This document shows, piece by piece, positions 8,735 to 48,539 of a DNA stretch of 64,000 nt (its first letter is position 1; each line of letters starts with the position of its first letter). Position numbers and translations under genes: made by a program. The notes beneath the pieces were generated by a model. The model saw only the letters and a list, made by a program, of their open reading frames with translations, was not told the origin of the DNA and did not search any database. The DNA comes from Gemmatimonadota bacterium (lineage in GTDB: Bacteria; Gemmatimonadota; Gemmatimonadetes; Gemmatimonadales; GWC2-71-9): contig JBDHAB010000010.1 of the NCBI GenBank assembly GCA_039588295.1, positions 1-64,000 on the forward strand, written 5' to 3'.

Positions 8735-10474
8735 GTGTCATCGAAGAAATCCGCAAAACGAGTGGCGAAGCCGACGGCTTCGCGTTCCCCAAAAACGACC
8801 AAGCAAGTCAAGAAACGCGCGAAGCCGTCGGCACGTCCGGCGAAGCGGCAGGCCGCGCGGTCCGGGGTCGACCTGTTGCACGATCCTCGGCTCAACAAGG
8901 GAACCGCGTTCACCGAGGCCGAGCGCGACGCGCTGGGACTGCGAGGGCTACTGCCACCACATATCCACAGCATGGAGGAACAACAGGCCCGCGTACTTGA
9001 GAACTTTCGACTCAAACCCAACGCACTCGAGAAGTACATCTTCTTGACCGCGCTGCAGGACCGCAACGAGACGCTCTTCTACCGTACGGTGATCGACAAC
9101 ATTTACGAGATGACGCCGATCATCTACACACCCACGGTGGGTGAGGCATGTGCCAAGTACGGGCACATCTTCCGCCGTCCCCGTGGCCTCTACGTCACGG
9201 CAAACGACCGCGGACGCATGGCCGACGTGTTGCGAAACTGGCCTGTGAAAGACGTGGCGATCATCGTCGTGACCGATGGCGAGCGGATTCTCGGACTGGG
9301 CGATCTGGGCGCAGACGGCATGGGGATCCCCATCGGAAAGCTCTCGCTGTACACCGCCTGCGCTGGGGTCCATCCACGCCGTGCGCTGCCCATCACTTTG
9401 GACATCGGAACGAACAACGAGGGCCTGCTCAACGATCCCCTCTACATCGGGCTCAAGCAGCGCCGCCTGCGAGGAGAGGAATACGATCAACTCGTGGACG
9501 AGTTCATGGAAGCGGCGCAGCGAGCGTTTCCCGGCGTGCTCATTCAGTTCGAAGATTTTGCCACGCTGAACGCGTTCCGGCTTCTGAAGAAGTACCGCAA
9601 TCGACTTTGCACGTTCAATGACGATATCCAGGGGACCGCCGCGGTGACCCTCGCCGGAATGCTCGGCGCGACTCGGATCAGCAAGCAGGATATCACCCAA
9701 CAGCGTGTGCTGTTTCTCGGAGCAGGAGAGGCGGGGATCGGCATCGCCGGCCTCATCGTCTCGGCAATGGTGCGGGAGGGTGTGCCTCACCAAGAGGCGA
9801 AGGGCCGCATGTGGTTTGTGGACTCCAAGGGCCTCGTGGTGGAATCTCGCAAGGACCTCGCCGAGCACAAGATCCCGTACGCCCGCGACCATGCGGCCGT
9901 GACCGATTTGCTGTCTGCGGTCAAGGCCGCCCGACCGACGGCGCTCATCGGCGTGTCAGGCAGGCCGCAGTCGTTCACCGAGCCAGTCGTTCGGGCCGTC
10001 ACGGAGCTCAACGAGCACCCGATTGTCTTCGCGCTCTCCAACCCGACCTCCAAAGCCGAGTGCACCGCCGAGCAGGCGTATCAGTGGACCAACGGGCGGG
10101 GCATTTACGCCAGCGGAAGCCCGTTCGAACCCGTAGAATACCTGGGCAAGCGCCACGTTCCGACTCAGGGGAACAACGCCTACATCTTCCCCGGACTGGG
10201 GTTGGGCGCGATTCTGTCGGGTGCCAAATTTGTCACGGACGAGATGTTCTACACCGCCGCCAAAGCAGTAGCCAACATGACCACCGAGTCGATGCTCGCT
10301 CAGGGGTCGGTTCTCCCGCCGCTCACGGAGATCCGTGAGGTATCGGCCACGATCGCGACCGCCGTAGCCGAGTACGCGTGGGACGAAGAGCTCGCCACTA
10401 GACCACGGCCCAGTGATGTTCTCGCATACGTCCGATCCCAGATGTACGACCCGCGGTACGAGAGCTACGTGTGA
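8735..10474 (+). CDS. maeA: NAD(P)-dependent malic enzyme (large SfcA/MaeA type) with basic N-terminal extension
   Basis: NKGTAFT, PIIYTPTVGEAC, VTDGERILGLGDLG, QFEDFA, FNDDIQGTA, GAGEAGIG, LSNPT, QGNNAYIFPG. Probable GTG start at 8735 after GGAGGGG. Confidence 0.93.
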   Translation: MSSKKSAKRVAKPTASRSPKTTKQVKKRAKPSARPAKRQAARSGVDLLHDPRLNKGTAFTEAERDALGLRGLLPPHIHSMEEQQARVLENFRLKPNALEKYIFLTALQDRNETLFYRTVIDNIYEMTPIIYTPTVGEACAKYGHIFRRPRGLYVTANDRGRMADVLRNWPVKDVAIIVVTDGERILGLGDLGADGMGIPIGKLSLYTACAGVHPRRALPITLDIGTNNEGLLNDPLYIGLKQRRLRGEEYDQLVDEFMEAAQRAFPGVLIQFEDFATLNAFRLLKKYRNRLCTFNDDIQGTAAVTLAGMLGATRISKQDITQQRVLFLGAGEAGIGIAGLIVSAMVREGVPHQEAKGRMWFVDSKGLVVESRKDLAEHKIPYARDHAAVTDLLSAVKAARPTALIGVSGRPQSFTEPVVRAVTELNEHPIVFALSNPTSKAECTAEQAYQWTNGRGIYASGSPFEPVEYLGKRHVPTQGNNAYIFPGLGLGAILSGAKFVTDEMFYTAAKAVANMTTESMLAQGSVLPPLTEIREVSATIATAVAEYAWDEELATRPRPSDVLAYVRSQMYDPRYESYV

Positions 10475-11820
10475 CCCGATCGCTGAAATGGCACCTCGTT
10501 GTCGCGGCCGTTCTCGTCGCGGTTGCTGTGCCCCTCGAGGCACAAACGCGCGAGCGAGAGGCCGTCGACTCGATCTTCCGTGCATGGGATCGGCCCGGTT
10601 CGCCTGGTTGCGCCCTCGCCGTCGTGGAGGGTGGGGCCGTGGCGTACGCGCAGGGGTACGGTTATGCCAACCTCGAACGAGGCACCCCGATCACGCCCAA
10701 CGGGGTGTTCTACATCGCATCGGTCTCAAAGCAGCTCACAGCGGCGAGCATTGTGTTGCTGGCACTCGAAGGCAAGATCTCGCTCGACGACGACGTTCGG
10801 ACGTATGTACCAGAGCTGCCGGATTACGGTCAGACCATCACGATTCGGCATCTGCTGAACCACACGAGTGGATTGCGCGATTACCTGACCCTTATGGAAG
10901 CGGCGGGTATGTCCCTGGAGGAAGAGCAGTCTCCAGAGAACATTCTCGCCCTGGTCGCGCGGCAGGAACAGCTGAATTTCCCACCGGGAACGGAGTACCT
11001 CTATAGCAACACCGGATACTTCCTGATTCCGATCATCATCCAACGCGTCACGGGAATCACGATCCACGAGTATGCTGCCGCCAGGCTCTTCAGCCCGCTG
11101 GGCATGTCACGCACACGGTTTCACGACGACTACCGTACACCCGTCGACAATCGTGTGTGGAGCTACCGACCAGCCGACGACGAGGGCTTCGAGCTCGCGT
11201 TCCTCGAGAAGTTCGACCAGGTGGGCTCGGGAGGAGTACTGACAACCGTCGGAGATCTCGCCCTGTGGGACGAGAATCTTCACACCGGCACGGTGGGCGG
11301 CGAGCAATTGCTGCATCTCATGCAAACGCGAGGCGTACTCGCCACCGGGGATACGCTGGACTACGCGCTCGGCCTCGTGATCGGGACGTACAAGGGATTG
11401 CGCACGGTCTCACACGGCGGGTCGATGATGGGATTTCGCACCCACCTGCTGCGATTCCCCAACCAGCGACTGAGTGTCATCTGCCTGTGCAACCTCGCAA
11501 ACATCGATCCAGGAGCACTGGCGCGTCAGGTGGCGGATGTGTATCTGACGGATCCGCTGAATCAGAGCCTCACTCCGTACGGCGGACGCTACGTCTCAGC
11601 GGAACTCGGTGTCAGTTGGACCATTCGGGTGGACGGCAGCGACCTGATACTGGAGCGACCGGGAGAGGATGCCCCCGCCGAACTGGAATCCCAAGGCACG
11701 GACGCGTTCAGCCCTCGGCGCGGCGTAGTCCTCGAATTCGAGCGGGATGCCGAGGACCACGTAACGGGCTTTCGACTCAACACTGGACGTGCGAACGGCA
11801 TCGAATTTGTGAGACGCTGA
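10471..11820 (+). CDS. Exported serine hydrolase, beta-lactamase/D-aminopeptidase-like (S12)
   Basis: Signal peptide; ASVSK (SxxK), LLNHTSG, YLYSNTGY, SHGG; C-terminal beta domain; 4-nt overlap with the malic enzyme stop. Confidence 0.9.
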   Translation: MTRSLKWHLVVAAVLVAVAVPLEAQTREREAVDSIFRAWDRPGSPGCALAVVEGGAVAYAQGYGYANLERGTPITPNGVFYIASVSKQLTAASIVLLALEGKISLDDDVRTYVPELPDYGQTITIRHLLNHTSGLRDYLTLMEAAGMSLEEEQSPENILALVARQEQLNFPPGTEYLYSNTGYFLIPIIIQRVTGITIHEYAAARLFSPLGMSRTRFHDDYRTPVDNRVWSYRPADDEGFELAFLEKFDQVGSGGVLTTVGDLALWDENLHTGTVGGEQLLHLMQTRGVLATGDTLDYALGLVIGTYKGLRTVSHGGSMMGFRTHLLRFPNQRLSVICLCNLANIDPGALARQVADVYLTDPLNQSLTPYGGRYVSAELGVSWTIRVDGSDLILERPGEDAPAELESQGTDAFSPRRGVVLEFERDAEDHVTGFRLNTGRANGIEFVRR

Positions 11821-11869: not shown

Positions 11870-12793
11870 CTACGGCTCCAAGTCCACGCGGTAACTCATC
11901 ACGAACTCCAAGAACCGTGAGACCTCGGGCACATCTCTGCCCACGTACCGGACGCTGTGCGCGTCGATGCGCTCAACTGAGGGCAGGTATGCCAGGACCT
12001 GAGACGGTCGATAGCTCTTGAAGCGTATCTCCAGCGCCACCGGCGTCGCGAGCCGGTACGGCTCAAAATCGTGGAGCCTGCCGAGTGCCGCCCGGGTCCG
12101 TTCCTCGATGAGCTGGGACGCCGCCGCCGGCGTGAGTGAGCGTGCCGAATGAAAGCCATAGTTTCGTTTGACGACGGCAGCTTCGACGTCGCCCAACAGG
12201 GCTTGCGCCTCCGAGACCGCCGCGTCGTCTCCGGTGACCAAGATGACGGGGACTCCGAAGTGACCGGCAATCGCCGCGCTCAAACCGGCCTCGGGGATCG
12301 ATCTGCCGTTCAGCCGGACGTCGGCGAGGCGCGCGCTGGAGATGGTATGGGCTCGGACGCCGTCCGGATTCGTTGTACCGGCGTGATAGCCCAGCAGCAC
12401 AGCGCCCGCGAATGTGGAATCGATGCCCTGCATCATCATCAGCGGTCGCGGCCACGCGCGGATGACTTCGATATCGTCCGGTAGCATGTCGAGGAGGAGA
12501 TTCTGACCGTTTCCGTGGGAGTCACTCACCAGGATCTCCGTCACCCCAGCCGCCCGCGCTCCTCGGATGACCGCCAGTACCTCTCGTGTCATGAATTCCC
12601 TGAAGGCGGCATACTCGAACCCTTGTGGGCCAAGTTGATCGGGCGTTACCACGCCCGCAACACCTTCCATGTCGGCTGAGATGTAAAGCTTCCGTGCGGC
12701 CGTTTGTCCGTGCGCCGGCAGCGCGATGCTGACCAGCGCTCCCGAGAGGCAGGTCAGCAGGCAACCGTGTCGAATCTTCTTTGGGTAGCGCAT
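11870..12793 (-). CDS. M55 family D-aminopeptidase (DppA-like) with signal peptide
   Basis: LYISADMEG, VSDSHG, LMMMQG, LGYHA, AHT, VTGDD. Start moved to ATG 12793, just after the dodecin stop. Confidence 0.9.
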   Translation of the reverse strand: MRYPKKIRHGCLLTCLSGALVSIALPAHGQTAARKLYISADMEGVAGVVTPDQLGPQGFEYAAFREFMTREVLAVIRGARAAGVTEILVSDSHGNGQNLLLDMLPDDIEVIRAWPRPLMMMQGIDSTFAGAVLLGYHAGTTNPDGVRAHTISSARLADVRLNGRSIPEAGLSAAIAGHFGVPVILVTGDDAAVSEAQALLGDVEAAVVKRNYGFHSARSLTPAAASQLIEERTRAALGRLHDFEPYRLATPVALEIRFKSYRPSQVLAYLPSVERIDAHSVRYVGRDVPEVSRFLEFVMSYRVDLEP

Positions 12794-12795
12794 GT

Positions 12796-14282: not shown

Positions 14283-14302
14283 GCACCCGACACCCGCACA
14301 TG

Positions 14303-14343: not shown

Positions 14344-14359
14344 TACCCAGTGACCCTCG

Positions 14360-14962: not shown

Positions 14963-16417
14963 TCAGTGCCCTCGTTCGCGAGGCAGGGCCTCCGGCATAT
15001 CCGCGACAACGTACGCCATCACCGCCATGGCCGCAACACACAATGCCATCTCGCGCGGATCCAACTTATCGATCGTGTCGGCATCAGTGTGGTGGTACCA
15101 GAAGTACTTCGATCCATCGACCGAAAGCCCCATTCCCGGCACGCCGGCACGCATCAGCGGGCCGATATCGGCGCCACCCCCAGGCCGTGTGACGGTGCCT
15201 GCCTCGATCCGGTCGAGGAGTGTGCCGACCTCCGCTACGACGGCGTACGCGTCGTCCGAACCACCGAACCCGAATCCCCGTGGTTTGAAGACTCCGCCAT
15301 CGGATTCGATTGCCAGAACATGCTGATCCATCTCACTGCGATGGGCTTCCCGATAGGCCGTCGCACCGCGCAGCCCGTTCTCCTCGTTCGTCCATAATAC
15401 GACGCGAAGGGTGCGCCGGGGCTGCAATCCCAACTGTTGGATCAGGCGCACGGCCTCCCACGCCGCGACGCTCCCCCCACCATCGTCCATCGCTCCCTGG
15501 CCGACATCCCACGAATCGATGTGCCCCCCGAGTACGACCACCTCCTCAGGGTGTTCGGATCCGACCAGCTCCGCTACGACGTTGCGCGACGGCACATCGG
15601 GCAGCGTTCGCGCGCCCAGTTCGAGTCGAACCACCACGCGCTCCCCCCGATCGGCCATCCGCTGGATGAGCTCCGCGTCTTCGACCGTGATCGCCGCGTA
15701 CGGAATGCGGGGTACGCCGTCGGCGTATCCCATGGCGCCGGTGTGGGGTGTCTGGAGCGAGTACGGGGTGACCGAGCGGAGCAGACCGGCAATGGCACCG
15801 GCCCGCGCCGCCCAAATCGCCCCAGCTCCGCGGTACCGCACCGTTTGACCGTACGCGGTAAACGGAACGTTGAACAGCACGATCTTGCCCTCCGCTTCAC
15901 TCGCCCGCTCCCGCAGTTCGTCTACGCTTCCCACCACCATCACCTCACCCGTGACGCCTCCGGGTGGGGTGCCCACGGTGCCCCCCAGGCCCAGTACTGG
16001 CAGCGCCCGCTGACGCGGCGCCAGCATTTCGGCGTTCTCGTCTCCCCGCACCCAATGTGGCACCATGACCTGTTCCCCGTGGACGTTCTCCAAGCCGTCG
16101 CGCCGCATCTCCTCCATGATCCAGTCCAGTGCCAGTTCCAGGTTCTCCGAGCCACTGAAGCGATGACCGAACCGATCAACCAGGGCGGCCAGACGTTGGT
16201 AGGCCGAACTGTCTGCCAGTGCGGCATCGATGATCCGGTCGGCAACGGCTTGATATCGCGGCACGATCGACTGGGCCTGTGCCTCGAACGGCTGGGTCAG
16301 CGCCAGCAGCGCCAGCAGGCCGCCGCCCGTGACCCGAACCGAACTACGCGACGGGTGAGGAATCGCACCGCTTCGTCTAGTCCGTCGCCGCACCGCCCTC
16401 GCCTCCGGATCGAGCAT
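14963..16417 (-). CDS. M28 family metallopeptidase (carboxypeptidase Q-like, PA domain), exported
   Basis: FGHRFSGS, VPHWVRG, PHTG, GGHIDSWDVGQGAMDDGGG, WTNEENG, IESDGG, YFWYHHTDADT. True start may be somewhat downstream. Confidence 0.92.
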   Translation of the reverse strand: MLDPEARAVRRRTRRSGAIPHPSRSSVRVTGGGLLALLALTQPFEAQAQSIVPRYQAVADRIIDAALADSSAYQRLAALVDRFGHRFSGSENLELALDWIMEEMRRDGLENVHGEQVMVPHWVRGDENAEMLAPRQRALPVLGLGGTVGTPPGGVTGEVMVVGSVDELRERASEAEGKIVLFNVPFTAYGQTVRYRGAGAIWAARAGAIAGLLRSVTPYSLQTPHTGAMGYADGVPRIPYAAITVEDAELIQRMADRGERVVVRLELGARTLPDVPSRNVVAELVGSEHPEEVVVLGGHIDSWDVGQGAMDDGGGSVAAWEAVRLIQQLGLQPRRTLRVVLWTNEENGLRGATAYREAHRSEMDQHVLAIESDGGVFKPRGFGFGGSDDAYAVVAEVGTLLDRIEAGTVTRPGGGADIGPLMRAGVPGMGLSVDGSKYFWYHHTDADTIDKLDPREMALCVAAMAVMAYVVADMPEALPRERGH

Positions 16418-16422: not shown

Positions 16423-18837
16423 CTAGTCCTGAACCGTCCGACCAGCATCGAGCTGGTCGAACGTACGATTGAGTATCCGGTACTCACGCCAGTCTCGGTA
16501 ATCAAAATGCCACCACTCGAACTCGTAGACCGAGAACCCTACGGCTTCCATGGCATCTCGCAGCAGTTCTCTACGCCAGCGCTGAAGCGATGTTCCGCCG
16601 AGATACTGAGGAAACGAGCGATCCGAGAACTCGTCATACCCACCGACCATCTCGACGACACGCCCCGTCGGGAGGTCGTACAGCGTCAGATCCACCGCGG
16701 AGCCGCGATTGTGACGAGAGCCTTCGGCCGGGTTCGCCACGAAAATCTTGTACGCCTCCGGCGTCGCATCCCAGAACATCTTCGTGACGTACCACGGGCG
16801 ATAGGCGTCGTGGACGAGCAGACCATAGCCTTCCGCCGCAAGTCGCTGGTGCGCACGAACCAACGCCTCGGCGGCTGGGCGCTGCATGAACGCCTTGGGT
16901 TCATCATAGAAGATGGAGCTCATGAAGTTGTTGGTCGTTGCGTATCGAATGTCGTACCGGATCGACGGGTCCAGCGCCTGGAGCTCGACGAGGTCGGGAT
17001 CACGGAATGTCCCGGGCTCGGCGGGTGGCGATGCCGCCAACGCTGCCTGGCGCAGTTCTTCGACTGGGCGGACCGGCTGGATCGTAAACGTCGTGCCCGC
17101 CTCACCCCCAGAGTCTCGTCTGGCAAAGACAACACTGGCCGCCTCCACCTGCGTGGCGCGACCTGCTGCATCACGGGTGAAGATCAACCGCTCTCCGTCG
17201 TAGAGACCCCAATTCGGGAACGCAAACACGTCGGGTCCGAGTTCCATCAGCGGATAGAGAAAGAACCACTCGATCAACGCGTGGAGCTGGCCGTCCTTCT
17301 CCAGCACATACAGTACGTTGTGATCCCAGCCGTACTCGCCGATCAACCCGTTCCAGCGACCGGGTGCCGGTGGTGGAATCGCTCTGGAAACCCGTCTCAG
17401 CGTGTCACGGCCCAGTACGAGCCCGTCGGCGAGGGGCAGGAGGCGCGGTCCGTACGAGAGGCGGTCGTCCGCCACCAGCGTGTCGCCTCGGGTCCGGAGC
17501 CGCAGCCGCAGCCCGGGCTCACGAAACCACGCGTAAAGCGCAGCAGGTCGCTTTTCGATCTCGATCACCTGTTCGTCGAGCGCGTAGCGCCCGGCGACGC
17601 GGTCCGCCAACTCGTCCGGCACGGCATCCGTTATCTCGGCTGAGAGCAACGACTCATCATCTCGGACTGCCAGCATCAGTCGCAGCGCATAGGCGACAAT
17701 CCGTCCCACGACGGCGTTGGCCCCATCCATCGTCGTGACCGCCACCGCGCCGAGCTTCTCGTCTGGCAGCGCCGCGAACTCCGTGGCGAAACCGTAGATG
17801 GCACCGCCATGACGGACGAGGCGATGGCCATCCAGGTCGCCGAGCGCGAAGCCGATTCCGAACCCCTCGGTGGCATCGGACGGAGCGAACTGCGGCGTCA
17901 GCATCTGCTCGAGCGTTGCCGACGACACCACCTGACCATCCACGCCAACGCCGTCGGCAAAGATCGCGCTGAGGAACCGTGCGATGTCGGTCACCGGCGC
18001 ATACATGCTTCCCGCGGGTGCCATGCCGAGCTGGAACGTGGGCGCCGCGAACGGTTCGCCGTGATACGACCACATGGAGGCCTTCGCGAGCCGTCGCATG
18101 AGTACGGAGTCCGGCCGAAACGCGCTGCTCTGCATGCCAAGCGGCTCCAGCACCGATCGCTGCAAATACCCGGCAAACGGCTCATCGTGGAGCCGCTCGA
18201 GCACGTAGCCAACCGTCGCAATCCCAGCGTTTGAGTACTTCGTACGCCTGGTGGGTTCGTACACGAGCCGAGTACCGTTGAGGCTGCGAACGGTCGGGCC
18301 GAGCGCGGTGCCCGTGTTGTCGAAGTAGTGCCCCGTCGGTGGCTCCCGGACGAGACCCGAGCGGTGCGACATCAACTGCCGCAGCGTAATCGGTGTGCCG
18401 AACTCATTGGCCGGACTGAAGTCCGAGAGGTACTGCGTGATCGGCGCATCGAGATCAACCTCCCCACGCTCCACGAGCTGCATGATGCCGAGATCGGTGA
18501 AGAGTTTCGACACGGACCCGACTCGGTGGACGGTCGCCGCCGTCGCTGGAATGCTGTCTTCGGGATCGGCGTATCCGAACCCATGGGCCCACACGGTTTC
18601 TTGGTCATCTACCAGTGCGATGGACAGCGCCGGGAGCTCCTTGTCCTTCATCTCGTGTTCGATGAACGCCGTCAGTGCCTCGACTGCCTCCGCATAGTCG
18701 ACTCGGACTGGGACGTTTCCGGCATCCTGCCCGCAGCCTGTGACAACTGCCGAGAGCAACACTGCTGTGAAAGACCCGAGACACGAGACCCGGAATCTGC
18801 GCAGAACCCTGTTGGTTGCGACGGTATGTCTCACCAT
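16423..18837 (-). CDS. Lipoprotein: S12 serine hydrolase fused to C-terminal VanX/DdpX-type (M15D) D-Ala-D-Ala dipeptidase
   Basis: Lipobox VTGC; GSVSK, YSN, HGG; C-domain DIRYATTNNF, DAYRPW, GSRHNRGSAVDLTL, EFEWWHFDY. Confidence 0.9.
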   Translation of the reverse strand: MVRHTVATNRVLRRFRVSCLGSFTAVLLSAVVTGCGQDAGNVPVRVDYAEAVEALTAFIEHEMKDKELPALSIALVDDQETVWAHGFGYADPEDSIPATAATVHRVGSVSKLFTDLGIMQLVERGEVDLDAPITQYLSDFSPANEFGTPITLRQLMSHRSGLVREPPTGHYFDNTGTALGPTVRSLNGTRLVYEPTRRTKYSNAGIATVGYVLERLHDEPFAGYLQRSVLEPLGMQSSAFRPDSVLMRRLAKASMWSYHGEPFAAPTFQLGMAPAGSMYAPVTDIARFLSAIFADGVGVDGQVVSSATLEQMLTPQFAPSDATEGFGIGFALGDLDGHRLVRHGGAIYGFATEFAALPDEKLGAVAVTTMDGANAVVGRIVAYALRLMLAVRDDESLLSAEITDAVPDELADRVAGRYALDEQVIEIEKRPAALYAWFREPGLRLRLRTRGDTLVADDRLSYGPRLLPLADGLVLGRDTLRRVSRAIPPPAPGRWNGLIGEYGWDHNVLYVLEKDGQLHALIEWFFLYPLMELGPDVFAFPNWGLYDGERLIFTRDAAGRATQVEAASVVFARRDSGGEAGTTFTIQPVRPVEELRQAALAASPPAEPGTFRDPDLVELQALDPSIRYDIRYATTNNFMSSIFYDEPKAFMQRPAAEALVRAHQRLAAEGYGLLVHDAYRPWYVTKMFWDATPEAYKIFVANPAEGSRHNRGSAVDLTLYDLPTGRVVEMVGGYDEFSDRSFPQYLGGTSLQRWRRELLRDAMEAVGFSVYEFEWWHFDYRDWREYRILNRTFDQLDAGRTVQD

Positions 18838-28891: not shown

Positions 28892-28927
28892 ACCGCAGCT
28901 TCCGGGCCCGATCCCGGAAGCTGCGGT
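28892..28927 (-). terminator. Stem-loop downstream of susD (intrinsic terminator or mRNA stabiliser)
   Basis: Perfect 15-bp stem ACCGCAGCTTCCGGG/CCCGGAAGCTGCGGT, 6-nt loop, followed on the minus strand by TCTTTGT. Confidence 0.7.
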
Positions 28928-30241: not shown

Positions 30242-30303
30242 CGTTCGTCCTCCCAAAGAGGAAGGTAATGGTCTCGTCATTGGTGCAGGTCCGCGCATGG
30301 CCA

Positions 30304-33345: not shown

Positions 33346-33448
33346 CGCACGCCTCCATGGAAAGAGGGTCCTCAAAAACGCCCCGGCCGAGGGTGCGGGT
33401 GACCTAACACCCACCAGCCGCTCCCGGCAAGGGGCTGCAGGTTTCGTA

Positions 33449-33476
33449 TGCAACTTTGGATGCATCTGATGTTGCA
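33449..33476. promoter_or_regulatory. Imperfect 28-bp palindrome upstream of susC (candidate operator)
   Basis: TGCAAC-tttg-GATGCATC-tgat-GTTGCA; outer and inner dyads share one centre. Confidence 0.5.
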
Positions 33477-39261: not shown

Positions 39262-40395
39262 ATGATGCGCCTACGGCCTCAGATTCTCACGCTCGCGGCA
39301 TGCGCCGTTCTCGCCGTTGCCTGTGGCGACGGCTCCACCGGGCCCATCACCCGGCCTCCGGTTCCGTCACTGGAGGAGACGCTTCGCAGCTATCGGAACG
39401 CGAACGGACTCCCCGCCATCGCCGCTGCGATCATCCGAAGCGACAGTATTGAAGAAGTGGCCGCCGTAGGGGTGCGGCGCCTTTCCACCACTGACAGCGT
39501 GACCGTCGACGATGAGTTCCACATCGGCTCCGACACCAAAGCAATGGTGGCAACAGTTGCAGGGACATTGGTGGAAGACGGCGTCCTGGAGTGGTTTCAC
39601 ACCCCGGTCCACATCTTCCCGGACCTGGCCGATACGATCCACACAGATCTCCAGTCCATCACGCTGCGAGACCTGCTCACGCACCGAGCCGGCCTCCAGC
39701 CATTCACGACCGGCGCAGAATGGAATTCGGTCCCGGCATTTCCTGGCACGCCGGTCGAGCAGCGGAGGGCTTTCGTTGCGTGGTTCCTGAGCCGCCCACC
39801 GTGGGGCACGGTCGGCCAGTACGAATACTCCAACGCAGGGTACTCGATTGCAGCAGCGATGTTGGAGGAGATCACGCAACGGGCGTGGAACGAGCTCTTG
39901 CAGGAACGGCTCTTCACGCCACTCGGAATGACCACCGCCGGCTTCGGCTGGCCAGCCTTCAACGATCCCAACCAGCCGTGGGGCCACTGGGTCGTGTCCG
40001 GCTCCCTCGAGCCACACCCACCGGATGACGCGTACCAACTGGGCGAGTTCATCGGGCCGGCCGGCGATGTCCATGTGTCCATCACCGACTTCGCGCGGTT
40101 CGTGCAGATGCATCTTCGGGGCTTTCGGGGACAGGACGGGATCCTGAAATCGGAAACCGTGCAATACCTCCATGACCCAGTGGGCAGCTACGCGCTCGGC
40201 TGGGGAGTGTACTCCACGGGCGGTCACTCGATCAGCTCGCACAATGGGAGCGCCGGGACCTTCTACGCAACGATGGCATTCAGCCGCTCGCGCGACTGGG
40301 GTGTGGTGATAGCGACCAACGCGGGTGGCTCGAACGCCCAGTCCGTATGCAGCACGCTTCTCAGCGTGTTTCTCAACCGGTATTCCAACGACTGA
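39262..40395 (+). CDS. S12 serine hydrolase lipoprotein
   Basis: Lipobox AVAC; GSDTK, LLTHRAG, YEYSNAGY, HNGS. Confidence 0.88.
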   Translation: MMRLRPQILTLAACAVLAVACGDGSTGPITRPPVPSLEETLRSYRNANGLPAIAAAIIRSDSIEEVAAVGVRRLSTTDSVTVDDEFHIGSDTKAMVATVAGTLVEDGVLEWFHTPVHIFPDLADTIHTDLQSITLRDLLTHRAGLQPFTTGAEWNSVPAFPGTPVEQRRAFVAWFLSRPPWGTVGQYEYSNAGYSIAAAMLEEITQRAWNELLQERLFTPLGMTTAGFGWPAFNDPNQPWGHWVVSGSLEPHPPDDAYQLGEFIGPAGDVHVSITDFARFVQMHLRGFRGQDGILKSETVQYLHDPVGSYALGWGVYSTGGHSISSHNGSAGTFYATMAFSRSRDWGVVIATNAGGSNAQSVCSTLLSVFLNRYSND

Positions 40396-40490: not shown

Positions 40491-41192
40491 ATGAAGACCA
40501 TCGGGATTTTCGGCGGATTGGGGCCGGCCTCCACAATTGCCTACTATCAGTACATCACCGACAAGTACTACGAGGAGTTCGGCGACTACGGATACCCGCA
40601 GATTCTGATCTACAGCCTCAACTTCCAGAGTATCATCGATGTCGGCTACGAAGCTGCGGACACCATCAAGCGCGCCATCGAGGCCCTGCACCGTGCCGGC
40701 GCCGATTTCGCCGTAGCCTCGTGCAACTCCATCCACATCGTGCGTGACGACGTTGTGGGCGACATCCCGATCCCCTGGATCAGCATCATCGACGTGACGG
40801 CAGAGCACGTCCGGGCGGCCGGGATGAACAAGGTGGGACTCCTGGGAACCGTCTTCACCATGGGGAAGGGGTTTTACCAGCGAGGGCTGGCCAAGCACGG
40901 TATTGAGACGATCATCCCGGACCCCAGCGATCAGAAACGCGTCAACGAGATCATCTTCAACGAGCTCGTGCGGGGGGTGTTTACGGAGGAGTCGCGACGG
41001 GTCATGCTGGAGTCTATCGAGCAGCTGAGTGCGCATGGTGCGCAGGGTGTCGTGCTGGGATGCACCGAGATTCCGCTGTTGGTGAAGCAGGAACACACGG
41101 GGGTACGGGTCTTCGACACCATGACGCTGCACGCGCAGCGAGCGCTGGATCTCGCGCTCGAGCGACCCGCCGGTGTTCCCGGCACCGGCTAG
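40491..41192 (+). CDS. Aspartate/glutamate racemase family protein (RacX/YgeA-like)
   Basis: MKTIGIFGGLGPAST..YY, SCNSIH, GLLGT.FTM, LGCTEIP; both catalytic Cys present. Confidence 0.93.
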   Translation: MKTIGIFGGLGPASTIAYYQYITDKYYEEFGDYGYPQILIYSLNFQSIIDVGYEAADTIKRAIEALHRAGADFAVASCNSIHIVRDDVVGDIPIPWISIIDVTAEHVRAAGMNKVGLLGTVFTMGKGFYQRGLAKHGIETIIPDPSDQKRVNEIIFNELVRGVFTEESRRVMLESIEQLSAHGAQGVVLGCTEIPLLVKQEHTGVRVFDTMTLHAQRALDLALERPAGVPGTG

Positions 41193-41303: not shown

Positions 41304-42986
41304 ATGCGTCGCTTGGCGTTGTTCAGCTTGGTCACTCTGGTAGGATCCGCCTGCACGGCGGACTACGACATCATCATCCGGAATGGGATGGTATACGACG
41401 GCACCGGAGCAGCACCTATCGTGGCCGATGTTGCGATCGCCGACGACACGATTGCTGCCATCGGCTCACTCGCTGGCGTGCGGGGTCGCCTCGAAGTCGA
41501 CGCGCAGGGAATGGCGGTCGCCCCCGGATTCATCAACATGTTGAGCTGGGCAACCGAGTCGCTGATCGAAGACAGCCGCTCGCAGGGCGACATCCGGCAA
41601 GGCGTCACCCTCGAGGTGATGGGAGAGGGGTGGTCGATGGGACCGCTGAACGACCGGATGAAAGAAGAGGCTGTCGAGGAACAAGGCGACATCACGTACG
41701 ACATTGAATGGACCACGCTCGGGGAATACCTCGAGTATCTGGAACAGCGTGGCATCGCAGCGAACGTGGGGTCCTTCGTCGGTGCGACGACGGTGCGGAT
41801 TCACGAGATCGGATACGAGGACCGTCCGCCGACCGCCGAGGAGCTCGACCGCATGCGTGGCCTCGTTCGCCAGGCCATGGAAGAAGGGGCGTTCGGGCTC
41901 GGCTCGTCGCTCATCTATGCTCCCGCCTTCTACGCGAAGACCGATGAGCTGATCGAGCTCGCCAAAGTCGCCGCACAATATAACGGCATGTACATCTCAC
42001 ACATGCGCAGCGAGGGAAATCAACTCCTCGAAGCGTTGGAGGAGTTGATCACGATCGCGCGGGACGCGGGCATCCGGGCGGAGGTCTACCACCTGAAAGC
42101 CGCGGGTCAGGCAAACTGGGAAAAGATGGATGCCGTCATTGAACGGGTAGAGCAGGCCAGAGCGGAAGGTCTCGAGATCGTGGCCGACATGTACACGTAC
42201 ACGGCGGGGGCTACCGGCCTTTCGGCAGCGTTTCCCCCCTGGGCTCACGAGGGGGGGCACGAGGCCTTGATCGAGCGGCTCAAGGACCCCGCCACCAGGG
42301 CGCGCATTGCGCACGAGATGGTGACGCCCTCTGACGAATGGGAGAACCTGTATCTGGCAGCCGGCTCGGCCGACCGCGTGCTCCTCGTGGGATTCAAGAA
42401 CCCCGATCTCAAATCGCTCACAGGCAAGAGCCTCGCGGAAGTGGCAGAAATGCGTGGGAAGCCGCCAGCGGAGGCCGCCATGGACCTGGTGGTCGAGGAC
42501 GACAGCCGCATCGGGACCGTCTACTTCATGATGTCCGAGGAGAACGTCAAGAAACAGATTGCACTGCCGTGGGTCAGCTTCGATTCCGACGCGGAGTCCA
42601 TGGCGCCAGAGGGAGTCTTCCTGCTCTCGAACCCACACCCACGAGCATACGGCAACTTTGCGCGGCTGCTCGGCAAATATGTCCGCGAAGAGCAGGTGGT
42701 CCCGCTCGAGGAAGCCATCCGCAAACTCACATCGCTGCCCGCACAGAACCTCCGCATCGAGCGGCGGGGAACCCTCGCGGTCGGCAACTACGCCGACGTG
42801 GTAGTGTTTGACCCGGCCACCATCATCGACCACGCCACGTTCGCGGAGCCTCACCAGTACGCGACCGGCATGATTCACGTGTTCGTCAATGGCGAGCAAG
42901 TGCTCCGGAACGGTGAGCATACCGGCGCGACGCCGGGACGCGTCGTGCGCGGTCCCGGCTGGACCGGAGGGACGGCTACGGAATAG
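41304..42986 (+). CDS. N-acyl-D-amino-acid deacylase family amidohydrolase, lipoprotein
   Basis: Lipobox GSAC; PGFINMLSWA, LIYAP, SHMRSE, VYHLK, YTYTAG, DSDA, HPRAYGNFAR. Start ATG 41304 after GAGGAG. Confidence 0.88.
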   Translation: MRRLALFSLVTLVGSACTADYDIIIRNGMVYDGTGAAPIVADVAIADDTIAAIGSLAGVRGRLEVDAQGMAVAPGFINMLSWATESLIEDSRSQGDIRQGVTLEVMGEGWSMGPLNDRMKEEAVEEQGDITYDIEWTTLGEYLEYLEQRGIAANVGSFVGATTVRIHEIGYEDRPPTAEELDRMRGLVRQAMEEGAFGLGSSLIYAPAFYAKTDELIELAKVAAQYNGMYISHMRSEGNQLLEALEELITIARDAGIRAEVYHLKAAGQANWEKMDAVIERVEQARAEGLEIVADMYTYTAGATGLSAAFPPWAHEGGHEALIERLKDPATRARIAHEMVTPSDEWENLYLAAGSADRVLLVGFKNPDLKSLTGKSLAEVAEMRGKPPAEAAMDLVVEDDSRIGTVYFMMSEENVKKQIALPWVSFDSDAESMAPEGVFLLSNPHPRAYGNFARLLGKYVREEQVVPLEEAIRKLTSLPAQNLRIERRGTLAVGNYADVVVFDPATIIDHATFAEPHQYATGMIHVFVNGEQVLRNGEHTGATPGRVVRGPGWTGGTATE

Positions 42987-43033: not shown

Positions 43034-43411
43034 TTACCGTCGGCGGGTGATTGGGATCCTCCGATCGAGGTCCGGCTCGATCACCAGCTGGAGGATGTCA
43101 CCGCGGTCGACGTTCATCGATTCCGTGAAATAGGATCCCACTGAGATGAGCTGGATCTCGATTCTCAGTTCGGGGCCCGTCCAGCGAAATGTGAACGTTT
43201 CCTCGGCATTGCTCCGGACCGTTCCGAGCCGAATCCGCTGTGAGCCGATGAGGGCGTAGAGCGTGGCCTCGTAGAAGTTCTGGTTTGTGGCCTCGAGAGT
43301 GAGCTCGTTGGACGAGGCCGGTGCCAGCTCATCGTAATCGCCGCTCGCCGCTGAACTGCATGCGGCGATTCCTATGAGGAGCACAATAGCACGTGGCTTG
43401 CCTGCCATCAT
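43034..43411 (-). CDS. Small hypothetical lipoprotein
   Basis: SD GGAG; lipobox IAAC; beta-rich mature part (NQNFYEATLY...RLGTV). Confidence 0.6.
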   Translation of the reverse strand: MMAGKPRAIVLLIGIAACSSAASGDYDELAPASSNELTLEATNQNFYEATLYALIGSQRIRLGTVRSNAEETFTFRWTGPELRIEIQLISVGSYFTESMNVDRGDILQLVIEPDLDRRIPITRRR

Positions 43412-43528: not shown

Positions 43529-44593
43529 CTACAGAAGCTCCTCCAGACCAAGTGCGCCTGCGTAGGCAAACAGCGCCGGCAGCCCTCCGGTGTGCACGAA
43601 GACCACCGTGCGGGAAGCCGGGATCGCGCCTCGTCGGATGTGGTCAATCAAGCCCGCCATGGCCTTGGACGTGTACACCGGATCGAGCAGCACCCCGTCA
43701 CACCGTCCCACAAGCCGCATGGCTTCCTTCGCGGCGTCGGTGACCACGCCGTACCCGGGGCCGACATAGTCCACGATACTGGTGATGTCCCCGGGGGTCA
43801 GACGCGTCGGGAGCCCGAGGATCTCCGCGCAGTCATTCCCGATCGAGGCAATCGATGTCGGAAACGTCCACCCGGGTGCAATGGGCTTCGGGAGCGCCGG
43901 CAGGCCGACGATGCGAACCGGGGATTCGACATGCTTGGCGGCGATCGCCAGCCCCGCCTGCGTTGCGTCAGAGGAGCTGACCCAGATTTCGTCGACTCCA
44001 AGGTTCAGAGTTTCGGCTTGCTCGATGAGCTCGACAAAGGTATGCACGTAGGCGCAGGCGTATCGTCCGAGTCCCGACTCGTCGCCGCAGCGGCCGACGT
44101 AGACCTTCTTGCCGGTTGCTTCCAGCTCGCTTCCCCGTTGGCGCACGCGTTCGCCGTGGACCACCCAATCGACGCCCTCGATGATCTCCACCGTCGCGCC
44201 GACCAAGAGATCGAGCAGTATCCCACCCTGGATCTCATCATCGCGCTCCCCGCGGACCTTCCGAAGGATCAAGTGGCATTCGAGACCCAGCTTCGCGCAT
44301 GCGGCCGCCAATTGTCGGCAGTAGTTCGACTGCACTGCCGCACCCGCCACCACCGTATTCACTCCTCGTTCGAGGGCGTTGGCCAACACGTACTCGAACA
44401 TGCGAGTCTTGTTGCCACCCGTCGCCAGGCCCGTGAGATCGTCGCGCTTCATCCATATCTCCGGGCCACCGAGCTCGCGCGTCAGCCCCGCACAGGACTC
44501 GAGCGGTGTCGGCAACGCGGCGAGGGAAACCCGTGGTAAGGATGCCAATGCGCTTGTCAGCTCAGCGAGCTTGTCGGGCCTGGCATTTCTCAT
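43529..44593 (-). CDS. D-cysteine desulfhydrolase / ACC deaminase family PLP enzyme
   Basis: LPTPL, IWMKRDDLTG..GGNKTR, QSNYCR, YVGPGYG, LDPVYTSK, FVHTGG. Start ATG 44593. Confidence 0.9.
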   Translation of the reverse strand: MRNARPDKLAELTSALASLPRVSLAALPTPLESCAGLTRELGGPEIWMKRDDLTGLATGGNKTRMFEYVLANALERGVNTVVAGAAVQSNYCRQLAAACAKLGLECHLILRKVRGERDDEIQGGILLDLLVGATVEIIEGVDWVVHGERVRQRGSELEATGKKVYVGRCGDESGLGRYACAYVHTFVELIEQAETLNLGVDEIWVSSSDATQAGLAIAAKHVESPVRIVGLPALPKPIAPGWTFPTSIASIGNDCAEILGLPTRLTPGDITSIVDYVGPGYGVVTDAAKEAMRLVGRCDGVLLDPVYTSKAMAGLIDHIRRGAIPASRTVVFVHTGGLPALFAYAGALGLEELL

Positions 44594-45179: not shown

Positions 45180-46850
45180 CTACTGAATTCGTCTCGCGGT
45201 TTGATCCCGGCCACCCTGGTGCAGAATCAGGGCGGTCACCACTGCCTCCTCGTTCCGCACAAAGGTGATCTGCGCATCGACCACCTTGTAGAAGAACTTC
45301 GTCTCCGACTCCGCAAAGACCTGGTATCGTGCCTGGCCAGTAAGTTGTGCCATCAACTTCCCGTCCTCCGTGGACACCTCCAACACCACTCCCGGCGCCA
45401 GCTCGTACATGCCGACGTAGTCCTCGAGAAGCGTCGGGTCGACCGCGACCTCTACCCTTGGGGGAGGCGGCTGGTACTCGGCACCCACCTTGCGCAGGGT
45501 CCGGTCGGCACCACCCTGATGGAGGACCACGGCCGTCACCTCTCCGTCCTCGTTCTCTACGAAGGTGAGTTGCGCGTCGACAACGGTGAGGAAGAACTCT
45601 GTTTCGGAGGCGGCGTAGATCGGGAACCGCTGTTGCCCCTCTACGTGCACGGTCAGCTGGCCGTCCTGCAACGCAATGTCCGCGAGGACGCCGGGCTGGA
45701 ACTCGTACTTCCCCACATAGCGCTCGAGAATGGCCGGATCGACGTCTACCGGTACCTTGATCTCGCGGAGAGGACTACTGGGATCGAGTAGGTGAAATCC
45801 AATGTCATCGGGACTGGTGGACGTGTTCGACAGTACCACAACGCCAATCTGGCTATCGTCGACGAAACCCGCGAAACTCCGATAGCCACCCGTTCCCCCG
45901 TTGTGCCAGACAACCTCGCGCTCCCCCCTGCGCAAATGCCACCCGAGGCCGATACGCATGTTTGGTGAGCCTGCATCGTGACGAGCCTCGTGGGTTGTCC
46001 GCATCGCAGAGTGGAGCCGGCTCCGGCGCAGTCCCATGTTGGCAGCCAGGAACGCGAGCATGTCACGAGCGGTCGATCGTAGTGCGCCCGCCCCCGCAAG
46101 CGTTGGAATATCCCAGTTCGCCACTTCCGTGGTTCCACTGTGCCCGGGTGCGAGACGGCTGCGCATCGAGGATGTGAGCGCAATCCTGGTATCCGACATG
46201 CCGAGCTCGCTCGCGATGCGTTGCTGAATCAGCTCGTCATAGCTCGCGCCCGCTGCCAGCGTGAGGATATGGCCCAACAATCCGACGCCATAGTTGGAGT
46301 ATTCGTACTCCGCACCGACATCCCGGCGAAGCGTGTGGTTCGACAAGAATTCGTACAGTTGCTCCACCGAGTAGTCGGCGTACGGATTGCTCGGGTCGGC
46401 CGGCGCGAAGTTGTCGGGCATTCTGGGAAGACCCGATGTCTGGGTGGCGAGATGCTCCAAGGTGATGGACTGATCGTTGCGCATTGGAGCATGCACGGCA
46501 TCTGGAAGATATCGCTCGATGGGATCGTCGAAGGCCACCTCTTCCCGCTCGACCATGTCCGCCAGGAGGAGCGAAGTGAACACCTTCGTGATCGACCCGA
46601 TCTCGAACACCGTGTCTTCATCCGGTGTGCCGCCGTCAGGAAGTGCCGTCTTCCCATAGGCGAAATACCGAGTCCCCTTCGGACTCACGACCCCGACTAC
46701 GATGCTCATGTTGTGACCGTGATCCACCCGTGCGCGGATCGACGCTTTCACGTCCTCCGGAACGTCGGGAGCTTGCGCCTTGCATGGAGAGAACCCTACA
46801 AGAAGGCCCGTCGCGGCCACGATCGACGCGGATCGGAGATCGAGCTTCAT
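45180..46850 (-). CDS. Exported S12 serine hydrolase (AmpH-like) with two C-terminal DUF3471-like repeats
   Basis: GSITK, YEYSN, WHNGGTGG; two repeats VDP..LE.YVG.YE..PG...SET.FF..VVDAQ.TFV. Confidence 0.9.
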   Translation of the reverse strand: MKLDLRSASIVAATGLLVGFSPCKAQAPDVPEDVKASIRARVDHGHNMSIVVGVVSPKGTRYFAYGKTALPDGGTPDEDTVFEIGSITKVFTSLLLADMVEREEVAFDDPIERYLPDAVHAPMRNDQSITLEHLATQTSGLPRMPDNFAPADPSNPYADYSVEQLYEFLSNHTLRRDVGAEYEYSNYGVGLLGHILTLAAGASYDELIQQRIASELGMSDTRIALTSSMRSRLAPGHSGTTEVANWDIPTLAGAGALRSTARDMLAFLAANMGLRRSRLHSAMRTTHEARHDAGSPNMRIGLGWHLRRGEREVVWHNGGTGGYRSFAGFVDDSQIGVVVLSNTSTSPDDIGFHLLDPSSPLREIKVPVDVDPAILERYVGKYEFQPGVLADIALQDGQLTVHVEGQQRFPIYAASETEFFLTVVDAQLTFVENEDGEVTAVVLHQGGADRTLRKVGAEYQPPPPRVEVAVDPTLLEDYVGMYELAPGVVLEVSTEDGKLMAQLTGQARYQVFAESETKFFYKVVDAQITFVRNEEAVVTALILHQGGRDQTARRIQ

Positions 46851-46943: not shown

Positions 46944-48539
46944 TCACTCCCGGTGGATTCGCAGGATGGGGTAGACCCGTGCCTCCTCGAGCGCGTCATC
47001 GAGCACGTTCCAGTTCACCACTCCGTCGTCGGAGCGGGGCTCCAACAACGAGAATACGAGCTTGGCAAGCGGCTGATCGAGCGGCACCTCCATCGTGCCA
47101 ACCGGTACGGTGACCTCCGTGGCCTCATACCGTCCGAACAGCGTCCGCTCACGGTGACCCTGGAACTCCCGCGTTGCCTGCGTCGTCGAGTCAACGACAA
47201 ACCGTTCCACCGTTCGTCGCTGTTCAGCGTCGAGCCGCCGCATGCCGATCCCGTGCGCCTCGAGGAGCGCCACGACAGTACGGAGCTCCGGCGGCACCAG
47301 ATACGACGTGGGGACGCGAACTACCTCGAGCGCCCGGAACGTCCCGAACGAGGGCATCCGCTCGGGGATCGCGACGTTGAGCCGCCGGTACATGGGACGG
47401 CCGGTATAAGGATTCGCCTCCTGTTCGACTTTCCCAAGGAGGATCTCGACCGAATCCGGTGAGCGCTCGAAGGTCGCTCGCAGTGCCAGATCCGTCCCGA
47501 TCAGGGATACCCGGTCGGCGGTTTTCGCGGCGTCGCGAATCGCCGTCGTGTGTTCGAACGCAAACTCGACCACCTCCTCCACGAATCGCAGCGTGGCGAG
47601 AATCCGCTCCTCAAAGGTGGCATAGGCGTAGGCCTCACTCAGGATCCCAAACCGGTTTCTGAGGCCGATGTAGTTCGTGTTGAACCGGGGCCGATGGTCA
47701 AACGTGTACCACCCGCGTTCCGCCGAGCCGCTGCGCCACGGGAGGTTGCCGTAGTAGTAGTAATCCCAACCGTCTGTTGCCTTCACCGCTCGAGTCACGG
47801 CCGGTAGCCATTCTCCACGCAGCAGTTGTGTGATTGCGGAGGGGGTGTTGGGATGGAGCGGCGGCGCGTAGAGCAGATGGTAGGCGCGGCGCGTGCCGTT
47901 GGTGGTATGAAGATCCATGAGCACGTGCGGATCCCATTGACTCATGAAGGAAACCAGCGACCGGGCCTCAGGTGATTCCAGTTTCATGTGATCGCGGTTG
48001 AGATCGAGCCCCTGGGCGTTCGCCCGCTGACCCATGCCACCGACCGGTCCGTGCTGGCCCGGGCGGTTCGTCAGCCGCACCCGCTCGTTGCCGTCGGCAT
48101 TGTAGATCGGCGCGATCAGGAGGATCAGTGAATCGAGCCACTCAGCGTGGCTGCCTTCGGCGAGCGCTCGGATGAGCATGAGCGCCGCTTCCTTGCCGGC
48201 CACCTCCCCCGCATGAATGTTGGCCTGGACGAACACCCGTAGCTTACCGGAGCGACGCACGGCTGCGGGCTCCGCGGGCTCGACGTCCCCCACGACCACG
48301 AGTGGCAGCGAGCGGCCTTCCAGCGAGTAGCCAAAGGATGTGAGCCGGATCCGCGGCGACCGTTCGGCAGCGTGTTGAATGAAGGCCATCACGTCCGCGT
48401 AGCGGCTGGTCTCCTCAAACCCGGTGCGTTCGGCCCGCGTGACCAGTGGACTGGAGGATGACGCCAGTTGCGCCTCGATCGAGCCCGCCCACAACGCCAT
48501 GGTGACCAACCCGATCCCCAGCGTCCGCAGTCCCGACAT
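46944..48539 (-). CDS. M14 family zinc carboxypeptidase, exported
   Basis: Signal peptide; NIHAGE (HxxE), PIYNADG, DLNRD, DLHTTNG. Start ATG 48539. Confidence 0.88.
   Translation of the reverse strand: MSGLRTLGIGLVTMALWAGSIEAQLASSSSPLVTRAERTGFEETSRYADVMAFIQHAAERSPRIRLTSFGYSLEGRSLPLVVVGDVEPAEPAAVRRSGKLRVFVQANIHAGEVAGKEAALMLIRALAEGSHAEWLDSLILLIAPIYNADGNERVRLTNRPGQHGPVGGMGQRANAQGLDLNRDHMKLESPEARSLVSFMSQWDPHVLMDLHTTNGTRRAYHLLYAPPLHPNTPSAITQLLRGEWLPAVTRAVKATDGWDYYYYGNLPWRSGSAERGWYTFDHRPRFNTNYIGLRNRFGILSEAYAYATFEERILATLRFVEEVVEFAFEHTTAIRDAAKTADRVSLIGTDLALRATFERSPDSVEILLGKVEQEANPYTGRPMYRRLNVAIPERMPSFGTFRALEVVRVPTSYLVPPELRTVVALLEAHGIGMRRLDAEQRRTVERFVVDSTTQATREFQGHRERTLFGRYEATEVTVPVGTMEVPLDQPLAKLVFSLLEPRSDDGVVNWNVLDDALEEARVYPILRIHRE

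Follow-up and report, generated by a model that had tools for sequence, protein, structure and literature searches.

What does a SusC/SusD locus take up when it holds no glycoside hydrolase? The question is raised by a block of genes in 64,000 nucleotides of a Gemmatimonadota genome (contig JBDHAB010000010.1, positions 1 to 64,000, called the window below), where a tandem susC-susD pair lies among exported peptidases. An earlier reading, made from the sequence only, had proposed a complete pathway for peptides containing D-amino acids. We find that the locus is real, conserved and, to judge from comparison with its relatives, probably co-regulated. Its fifteen exported enzymes, predicted to cut peptides or amides, come mostly from families that cleave next to D-amino acids, and the block looks like a D-peptide feeding system. 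It is a variant of the SusCD utilisation locus for peptides, most likely those with D-residues or N-acyl groups. With moderate confidence, we read it as a GntR-repressed locus for the use of short peptides or amides bearing D-residues or N-acyl caps.

The features of the locus are listed below, with identities to homologues in G125 (a genome of the same genus), G346 (a genome of another genus), L087 (a metagenome sequence) and Gemmatirosa. ODH stands for opine dehydrogenase, PLP for pyridoxal 5'-phosphate and ORF for open reading frame.

10471..11820, plus: S12 serine hydrolase with signal peptide; nearest solved enzymes Pab87, O. anthropi D-aminopeptidase (DAP) and alkaline D-peptidase (ADP); 60% flanking homologue in G346
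11870..12793, minus: M55 (DppA-like) D-aminopeptidase family, signal peptide; 191.7 bits, cut-off 430; 71% in G346
14963..16417, minus: M28 peptidase with signal peptide (Pfam); absent from the related loci compared
16423..18837, minus: fusion lipoprotein, S12 + M15D (VanX/DdpX-type); SxHxxGxAxD and EWWH intact; 71-72% in G125 and G346
18976..20835, minus: S15 CocE/NonD lipoprotein, alpha-amino-acyl peptidase/ester hydrolase type; 76-80% in G125, G346 and L087
20919..22028, minus: M55 lipoprotein, metal motifs intact; 69-75% in G125 and G346
22161..23798, minus: D-aminoacylase-family enzyme with signal peptide; 81-83% in G346 and L087, about 71-72% in Gemmatirosa
23795..25336, minus: S12 + DUF3471 (Pab87-type architecture), signal peptide (Pfam, motifs)
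25370..26926, minus: S12 + DUF3471, signal peptide (Pfam, motifs)
26988..27713, minus: GntR (FCD) regulator (Pfam); 50-62% homologues adjoin many related susC genes
27710..28840, minus: YkvI-family membrane carrier, start codon approximate
28892..28927, minus: 15-pair hairpin with T-rich tail, terminator-like, 3' of susD (consensus scan)
28964..30304, minus: SusD lipoprotein (ORF limits; the real start is probably about 100 nt downstream)
30304..33345, minus: SusC/RagA TonB-dependent transporter; TIGR04056 431.6 bits, cut-off 368.25
33442..33455, no strand: weaker predicted GntR-type operator 5' of susC; 14.2 or 10.7 bits, depending on the matrix
33631..34401, minus: plug1, secreted CarboxypepD_reg + Plug protein without barrel (Pfam); conserved in G125, G346 and L087
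34368..35132, minus: plug2, secreted CarboxypepD_reg + Plug protein without barrel (Pfam); conserved in G125, G346 and L087
35148..35161, no strand: predicted palindromic GntR-type operator with TGTATACA core; the genome's top-scoring site
35338..36351, plus: class A beta-lactamase-like serine hydrolase with signal peptide; Thr at the Glu166 position, long omega-loop insert
36407..38050, plus: D-aminoacylase-family lipoprotein (Pfam/NCBIfam, motifs)
38112..39227, plus: ODH, cytoplasmic; nearest solved enzyme N-(1-D-carboxyethyl)-L-norvaline dehydrogenase
39262..40395, plus: S12 lipoprotein (Pfam, motifs)
40491..41192, plus: PLP-independent two-Cys amino acid racemase, cytoplasmic; TIGR00035 above cut-off
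41304..42986, plus: D-aminoacylase-family lipoprotein (sequence comparison, motifs)
43034..43408, minus: small lipoprotein without family; adjoins the locus also in G125, G346 and another relative, G370
43529..44590, minus: D-cysteine desulfhydrase-family PLP enzyme, cytoplasmic; best model D-cysteate sulfo-lyase, below cut-off
45180..46850, minus: S12 + two DUF3471, signal peptide (Pfam, motifs)
46944..48539, minus: M14 carboxypeptidase with signal peptide (Pfam); absent from the related loci compared

Fourteen genes form a minus-strand run from 35132 to 14360, and six form a divergent plus arm at 35338-42986. Every gene family named in the sequence-only reading was recovered with Pfam (49 ORFs) or NCBIfam (28 ORFs), and its counts stand: seven SxxK hydrolases (S12/PF00144 at 10471, 16423, 23795, 25370, 39262 and 45180, plus the class A-like enzyme at 35338), one VanX-type domain, two M55 and three D-aminoacylase-family genes, along with S15, M28, M14, the two-Cys racemase, the ODH and the D-cysteine desulfhydrase-family enzyme. 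It was also right that glycoside hydrolases are absent: no such family matched among the 49 ORFs scanned in the window, and genes tile 10.4-48.6 kb, leaving no space for an additional one. Judged by eye, all 15 hydrolases carry a signal peptide or lipobox, where nearly all had been claimed, and the racemase, ODH and PLP enzyme carry neither, as stated in that reading. A fourth D-aminoacylase had been placed at the window edge; a homologue does lie there (43-53% identical), but as a C-terminal fragment at 1-333, at the start of the contig. What had been overlooked are the two plug-only proteins and two unrelated genes that interrupt the peptidase run at 12921-14893, a TrkA-domain K+ channel at 12921 and a cytochrome P460 lipoprotein at 14360. 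In another genome, G095, S12-M15, P460 and M55 genes are grouped without SusCD.

Conservation was examined in relatives, and those carrying the locus belong to Gemmatimonadota (L075, L076 and L086 duplicate G125 and G346 and were counted once). A SusD match was found in 61 of the 401 family genomes, with more than 60% identity in G125 and G346 only; among the eight other genomes of the genus, G125 alone has the locus. Both relatives keep the order S12-S12-GntR-YkvI-SusD-SusC-plug-plug and, on the divergent arm, class A-D-aminoacylase-ODH-S12-racemase-D-aminoacylase, at 47-83% identity. In L087 the core of the minus arm is reshuffled, and M55 and S12-M15 are absent within its 17 kb; a second metagenome sequence, L091, has the class A-like gene, GntR, SusCD, three S12 and one D-aminoacylase gene. 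The M28, M14 and P460 genes are not conserved in the locus among relatives. Added genes are M19 and a DadA-like oxidoreductase in G125 (best model D-amino acid dehydrogenase, 262 bits against a cut-off of 383), and M19 and lutABC in G346, with M19 found in G370 as well. The inserted genes of G346, of the lutABC lactate-oxidation type, lie between the ODH and S12 genes (L056:1680-5321).

The ODH gene matched 10 of the 401 genomes, at 78% identity or more only in G125, G346, G370 and G394. In the last two, YkvI directly adjoins the ODH or class A-like gene with no SusCD between them; a D-aminoacylase is retained, and in G370 also the racemase. The inner module can thus stand alone, and the locus is modular. 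Conservation holds for the core, kept in G125 and G346 and reshuffled in L087, but a sister SusCD clade in genus g121 lacks the enzymes (see below).

A related locus is present in the cultured Gemmatirosa kalamazoonensis, which opens the D-peptide idea to test. On plasmid 2 of strain KBS708 (NZ_CP007130.1, about 660-689 kb) lie a gene resembling N-succinylamino acid racemase (NSAR), SusC (38%), SusD (39%), four S12 genes and GntR (60%), with a tricorn protease, an M15 gene, an amino acid permease and a D-aminoacylase (about 71-72%). YkvI, ODH and racemase genes are absent within the 50 kb read.

The GntR regulator offers a second line of evidence. Loci with a linked GntR gene repeatedly carry a TGYATACR element upstream of susC, and a matrix was trained on 9 such sites from 7 distant loci. 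This matrix ranks 35148-35161 first in the whole 4.5 Mb genome, at 19.6 bits (128 sites reach 10), and also ranks the matching site first in G125, G346, L087 and Gemmatirosa; in Gemmatirosa the predicted operator lies upstream of susC. The site at 33442 scores 10.7 bits with it (rank 91 of 128), and 14.2 bits when close relatives are included in the training. By this predicted motif, the local regulator shares its operator across loci. No strong site adjoining the locus genes of G370 and G394 was found in the matrix scan. A consensus scan for sigma-70 promoters and terminators gave site counts not above those of shuffled sequence. The genes for plug1 and plug2 (33631-35132) follow immediately on the predicted operator. 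They are not specific to this locus, as the genome has similar plug-only genes elsewhere.

Clustering of the hydrolases was then compared with chance. Searches with the window proteins and the M19 protein of G125 yielded 35 homologues in the genome (20 S12, 2 class A-like, 8 D-aminoacylase, 3 M55, 2 M19). Twelve of them fall within the locus, that is 38.2 kb of 4,515 kb or 0.85% of the genome, where 0.3 would be expected; this comparison ignores tandem duplication, and the window proteins themselves served as queries. None of the seven other SusC-type loci of the genome has such a homologue within 12 kb. At E 1e-95, SusD has matches in 58 of the 401 phylum genomes (a tally that includes the unpublished G090, used nowhere else). 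Around SusD homologues outside the query clade, 49 neighbourhoods were picked by score and contig size from longer lists: 21 of them hold a D-family gene (S12, class A-like, D-aminoacylase, M55 or M19), at a density of 0.85 per 20 kb. Of 39 random stretches taken from 17 of these genomes, 4 do so, at 0.15 per 20 kb. The Fisher P value of 0.0008 is overstated, since kin are not independent.

YkvI neighbourhoods point the same way. The carrier has no Pfam or NCBIfam match, and scores 0.98 to Atlas clusters named YkvI, names that are assigned automatically. Our script flagged 17 of 27 YkvI loci, 13 of which have a window-type D-family gene within 6 kb, as do 2 of 39 control stretches. Three further loci (G155, L079, L085) have a GNAT-NSAR-M20 set beside YkvI; this family set was added post hoc, and the match in G155 is the query itself. 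GNAT-NSAR-M20 is a described pathway of D-to-L conversion (bioRxiv 10.1101/2022.03.03.481873). The NSAR-like gene also adjoins related SusCDs. In Pyrococcus horikoshii, D-allo-Ile co-induces a YkvI gene and a racemase, and YkvI has been proposed there to import D-amino acids (PMC13628549). For the YkvI neighbours, a DgcN-DgcA D-glutamate pathway was considered and rejected, as the protein scored 332.6 bits with the o-succinylbenzoate synthase (OSBS)/NSAR model (cut-off 200.65) and 106.8 with DgcA (cut-off 400). The remaining flagged locus, in G179, was left out of the count, because its gene of the D-amino acid oxidase family is most like N-methyltryptophan or sarcosine oxidase.

Are the enzymes themselves intact? 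Catalytic motifs are complete in all six S12 enzymes and the two M55 enzymes, as well as in the M15 domain, S15, M14 and the racemase. All six S12 enzymes have SxxK and YxN, and HxG was found in five by script and in the sixth by inspection. Their top solved matches are Pab87, DAP and ADP, which are distant (at most about 130 bits), and the enzyme at 45180 has no solved match at 1e-25; with the S12 D-peptidase model PRK13128, the top score is 162 bits against a cut-off of 443. Both M55 enzymes have DxEG and the three His and Glu zinc ligands, and score below the DppA equivalog cut-off. The M15D domain has SxHxxGxAxD, EWWH and the substrate-site Arg and Asp (128 bits, cut-off 176). The class A-like enzyme has SxxK, SDN and KTG and passes its model (209.8 bits, cut-off 200). 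It lacks Glu166 and Asn170: its omega loop reads DRPTVN and carries a long insert, the Thr being at the Glu166 position, and the readable close orthologues likewise lack both residues and have the Thr and the insert. It is therefore better read as a peptidase or an acyl-trap than as a beta-lactamase. The D-cysteine desulfhydrase-family enzyme has the PLP Lys and PVYT/HTGG (it is not of the 1-aminocyclopropane-1-carboxylate deaminase type); two loops diverge, and all models score below cut-off. A staphylopine-type metallophore operon was considered for the racemase and ODH and rejected, there being no nicotianamine synthase among the ORFs beside them.

Gene content, synteny and operator are observed, and specificities are assigned to the enzymes from their families. 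The following scheme can be proposed. SusD would capture, and SusC import, oligopeptides with D-residues or N-acyl groups. Exported S12 and class A-like hydrolases, whose families and export signals are established, would cleave beside D-residues, while M55 and S15 would trim N-termini, M15D (M19 in relatives) would split dipeptides, and the D-aminoacylase homologues may take off acyl caps or split L-D dipeptides. The freed D-amino acids would cross the inner membrane through YkvI, and the racemase, PLP lyase and ODH would yield L-amino acids, keto acids and ammonia; putative counterparts of this last step are the DadA-like oxidoreductase of G125 and, elsewhere, GNAT-NSAR-M20. Rather than one polymer, the likelier substrate is a mixture drawn from bacterial necromass, non-ribosomal peptides and aged peptides. 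We favour D-peptides because unrelated enzyme folds share the D theme, and because genes swapped in by relatives (M19, DadA-like) keep it. The pathway of the sequence-only reading thus gains from conservation, a shared operator, recurrent D-linked families and the YkvI link; the joining of both arms in one pathway is putative, and the locus is modular, as G370, G394 and g121 show.

Several results weigh against this scheme. No enzyme of the locus reaches a D-specific NCBIfam equivalog cut-off. The sequence-only reading had the families right, but did not note that the class A-like enzyme lacks Glu166 or that metal ligands are altered in the D-aminoacylase homologues: all three of the latter lack HxH, with M-x-[DGS] instead, and have Glu replacing the bridging Cys. 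In favour of the scheme, they retain His220, His250, Asp366 (general base), Tyr192, the YPY Tyr and the HPR Arg, among them the carboxylate-site Tyr and Arg, with residue roles taken from PMC12149444, which also notes active D-acylases without the bridging Cys. This exported subfamily without HxH and Cys (22161, 36407, 41304) has no solved member, and the 22161 protein has at least 120 relatives, Acidobacteriota included, all at least 70% identical among the matches listed. The D-aminoacylase family also includes the sugar-acid deacetylase OngB (PMC9537276), and the S12 family holds esterases such as IS11 (PMC12903863). General peptidases occur as well (M28 and M14, and tricorn in Gemmatirosa), and the families concerned are common across the phylum, with 9-13 D-aminoacylase homologues in each of five g121 genomes. 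The predicted operator abuts the minus arm, 16-29 nt from where plug2 starts; the plus arm is some 180 nt away, and its control by this site is putative.

The remaining objections concern the transporter. A SusD model built from 108 sequences (pLDDT 94.7) confirms, with TIGR04056 for SusC, the tandem pair, and aligns to a SusD over 346 residues (Z 32.5, root-mean-square deviation 3.0); RagAB is not its nearest structure (Z 26.2, against 32.5 for another SusD). The fold search matches glycan and peptide binders alike, so that the model does not indicate a ligand. No D-family neighbour accompanies 28 of the 49 homologous SusD loci. The principal result against a fixed D-peptide ligand is the sister SusCD of g121 (SusC 61-63%): in six of six genomes, S12, D-aminoacylase, M55 and YkvI genes are absent within 20 kb, and no strong operator site adjoins its susC in the matrix scan. 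Its neighbours (L166-L177) are TRAP, enoyl-CoA hydratase, CoA-transferase III, S15, M28, FAD-linked oxidase and amidohydrolase genes. In a quick SusD tree the query clade has a Shimodaira-Hasegawa approximate likelihood ratio support of 98, and the next branch out, L091 and L096, has D-family neighbours, which suggests that these genes may have been lost in g121.

The g121 pair is itself a candidate importer of acylated or organic-acid substrates. A second, distant g121 SusCD (about 30%; L258, L260, L262) lies upstream of YkvI, followed in L260 and L262 by an amidase-signature enzyme. In L063, L064 and L266, related SusCDs are flanked by Xaa-Pro dipeptidase-like amidohydrolases, cyclodeaminase-family and enolase-family genes and a sodium-solute symporter; this is possibly a locus for proline or hydroxyproline peptides.

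The main rival, which we consider unlikely though by no means negligible, is that the locus scavenges unusual amides of many kinds, such as N-acyl amino acids, residues that are N-carboxyalkylated or oxidised, and esters of amino acids, without strictly preferring D forms; the D theme would then come partly from the names of the families. The altered D-aminoacylase metal site and the esterases of S12 agree with it, as do the presence of S15, M28 and M14, the acyl-CoA and hydroxy-acid genes around the g121 pair, the lutABC insertion in G346, and a cysteate sulfo-lyase as best model of the PLP enzyme. Yet without D-residues it is difficult to account for the racemase, M15D and M55, for the DadA-like gene and the NSAR pathway, or for the YkvI link.

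A locus devoted to peptidoglycan stem peptides, which the sequence-only reading had listed among the substrates, is a weaker fit and appears improbable. M15D and M55 enzymes act on D-Ala-D-Ala, the racemase is of the Asp/Glu family, and the lactate-oxidising genes near related SusCDs would suit lactyl-peptides. However, no amidase, NlpC/P60, S66, dipeptide epimerase or amino-sugar gene is found among the locus ORFs (M14 being taken at family level). The genome does have NlpC/P60 and AnmK genes, but on different contigs, and a search of the assembly, which is 96% complete, found no S66. A pentapeptide would also need fewer enzymes than the seven of SxxK type and the three acylases present.

That the locus detoxifies or catabolises antibiotics of the beta-lactam and non-ribosomal peptide classes is, in our view, very improbable. 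The class A model does pass its cut-off, S15 is close to alpha-amino acid ester hydrolases, and the S12 D-peptidases BogQ, TriF, Lip3 and Lip7 cleave peptide natural products (PMC12903863), but Glu166 and Asn170 are absent from the window enzyme and its readable close orthologues, and active import with cytoplasmic catabolism suits feeding better than defence. There is little to recommend a glycan or amino-sugar-acid locus with OngB-like deacetylases: SusCD architecture and the family of OngB speak for it, but no glycoside hydrolase, lyase, sugar kinase or sugar transporter occurs in the locus or among the annotated ORFs of G125, G346 and L087, and OngB is predicted to be cytoplasmic, whereas the D-aminoacylase homologues of the locus are exported. 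That common exported hydrolases have gathered by chance beside a transporter, as abundant families, variable flanks and the rarity of the locus in its genus might suggest, is scarcely tenable in view of synteny over two genera, enrichment relative to controls and a shared operator.

How does the proposed D-peptide locus compare with known systems? RagAB of Porphyromonas gingivalis is a SusCD-type importer of oligopeptides (bioRxiv 10.1101/755678). It resembles the locus as a SusC/SusD pair for peptide rather than glycan uptake (for the locus, a proposal), and differs in taking up protease-generated peptides. Polysaccharide utilisation loci (PULs) of Bacteroidota share the susC-susD tandem, the hairpin after susD, a local regulator, exported hydrolases and an inner-membrane carrier; the present locus differs in being free of carbohydrate-active enzymes, in its Gemmatimonadota host, in GntR control and in the plug-only proteins upstream. 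To our knowledge, the RagAB genes do not lie among genes for D-specific hydrolases, a racemase or YkvI. The BAR cluster of P. horikoshii (PH0137, PMC13628549) has YkvI, a racemase and a local regulator, and is induced by a D-amino acid; it handles free amino acids only, has no outer-membrane import or peptidases, and uses a PLP racemase and an FFRP regulator, transport being proposed there too. The GNAT + NSAR + M20 set of Geobacillus kaustophilus, which adjoins YkvI in G155, L079 and L085, is absent from the window locus, where racemase, ODH and PLP lyase stand in. The ong cluster (Pseudoalteromonas prydzensis, PMC9537276) combines TonB-dependent import with a deacylase of the D-aminoacylase family and a PLP-dependent deaminase, in a pathway that has been likened to the catabolism of D-amino acids, but acts on oxidised chitin and needs a beta-hexosaminidase and KdgK besides the predicted cytoplasmic OngB, none of which is in the window locus. 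S12 D-peptidases (DAP, ADP, Pab87, ClbP, BogQ, TriF, Lip3/Lip7) have the same SxxK, YxN and HxG motifs and are individual enzymes rather than components of an import locus; the S12 DL-peptidases of PMC12903863 are a precedent for part of the locus.

No description of a SusCD locus with these families was found in the full-text literature, a search whose scope excludes subscription papers and supplements, so that survey tables of Gemmatimonadota could list such loci; none is described in the relevant passages of PMC12175321, PMC6298971, PMC11747546 and PMC10845958. The nearest earlier remark concerns a TonB-dependent transporter beside a D-aminoacylase in the gammaproteobacterium NOR5-3 (PMC3400609). 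In estuarine sediment, D-Phe relative to L-Phe aminopeptidase activity rises with depth, the attribution going only as far as noting D-aminopeptidase genes (PMC6752024). Peptides containing D-amino acids are a persistent fraction of aged organic nitrogen. The locus supplies assayable parts (importer, fifteen hydrolases, carrier, regulator, operator), among them a set of candidate D-selective peptidases, and it suggests what YkvI may do. More tentatively, it may be the fullest example of phylum-wide GntR-controlled D-peptide loci, a peptide counterpart of PULs, with which Gemmatimonadota would selectively import and dismantle D-rich nitrogen of sediment and soil, by means of an undescribed exported subfamily of amidohydrolases that has lost HxH and carries Glu for Cys, a class A-fold peptidase without Glu166, and YkvI as D-carrier.

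Some further observations concern the surroundings of the locus. Fragments of it, mostly at least 99% identical, occur in two DNA runs of one marine sediment metagenome study, which may be the source sample; no contig spans the locus there. No RNA run was listed as containing it, which has no bearing on expression. At 529-3176 lies a tandem pair of paralogues, 57% identical, with signal peptides, a barrel-like C-terminus and no Pfam match. Adjoining the locus at 4142-10474 are a biotin ligase-like gene, a carboxylase with a biotin domain, the beta subunit of a Na+-transporting oxaloacetate decarboxylase and a malic enzyme, the last of which flanks the locus in G346 too. LigD is encoded at 59100-62700, and the minus-strand gene upstream may be Ku, the ORF chosen being probably in the wrong frame. 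At 63388-64000 is the 5' part of a membrane-linked Ser/Thr kinase gene that runs past the window end.

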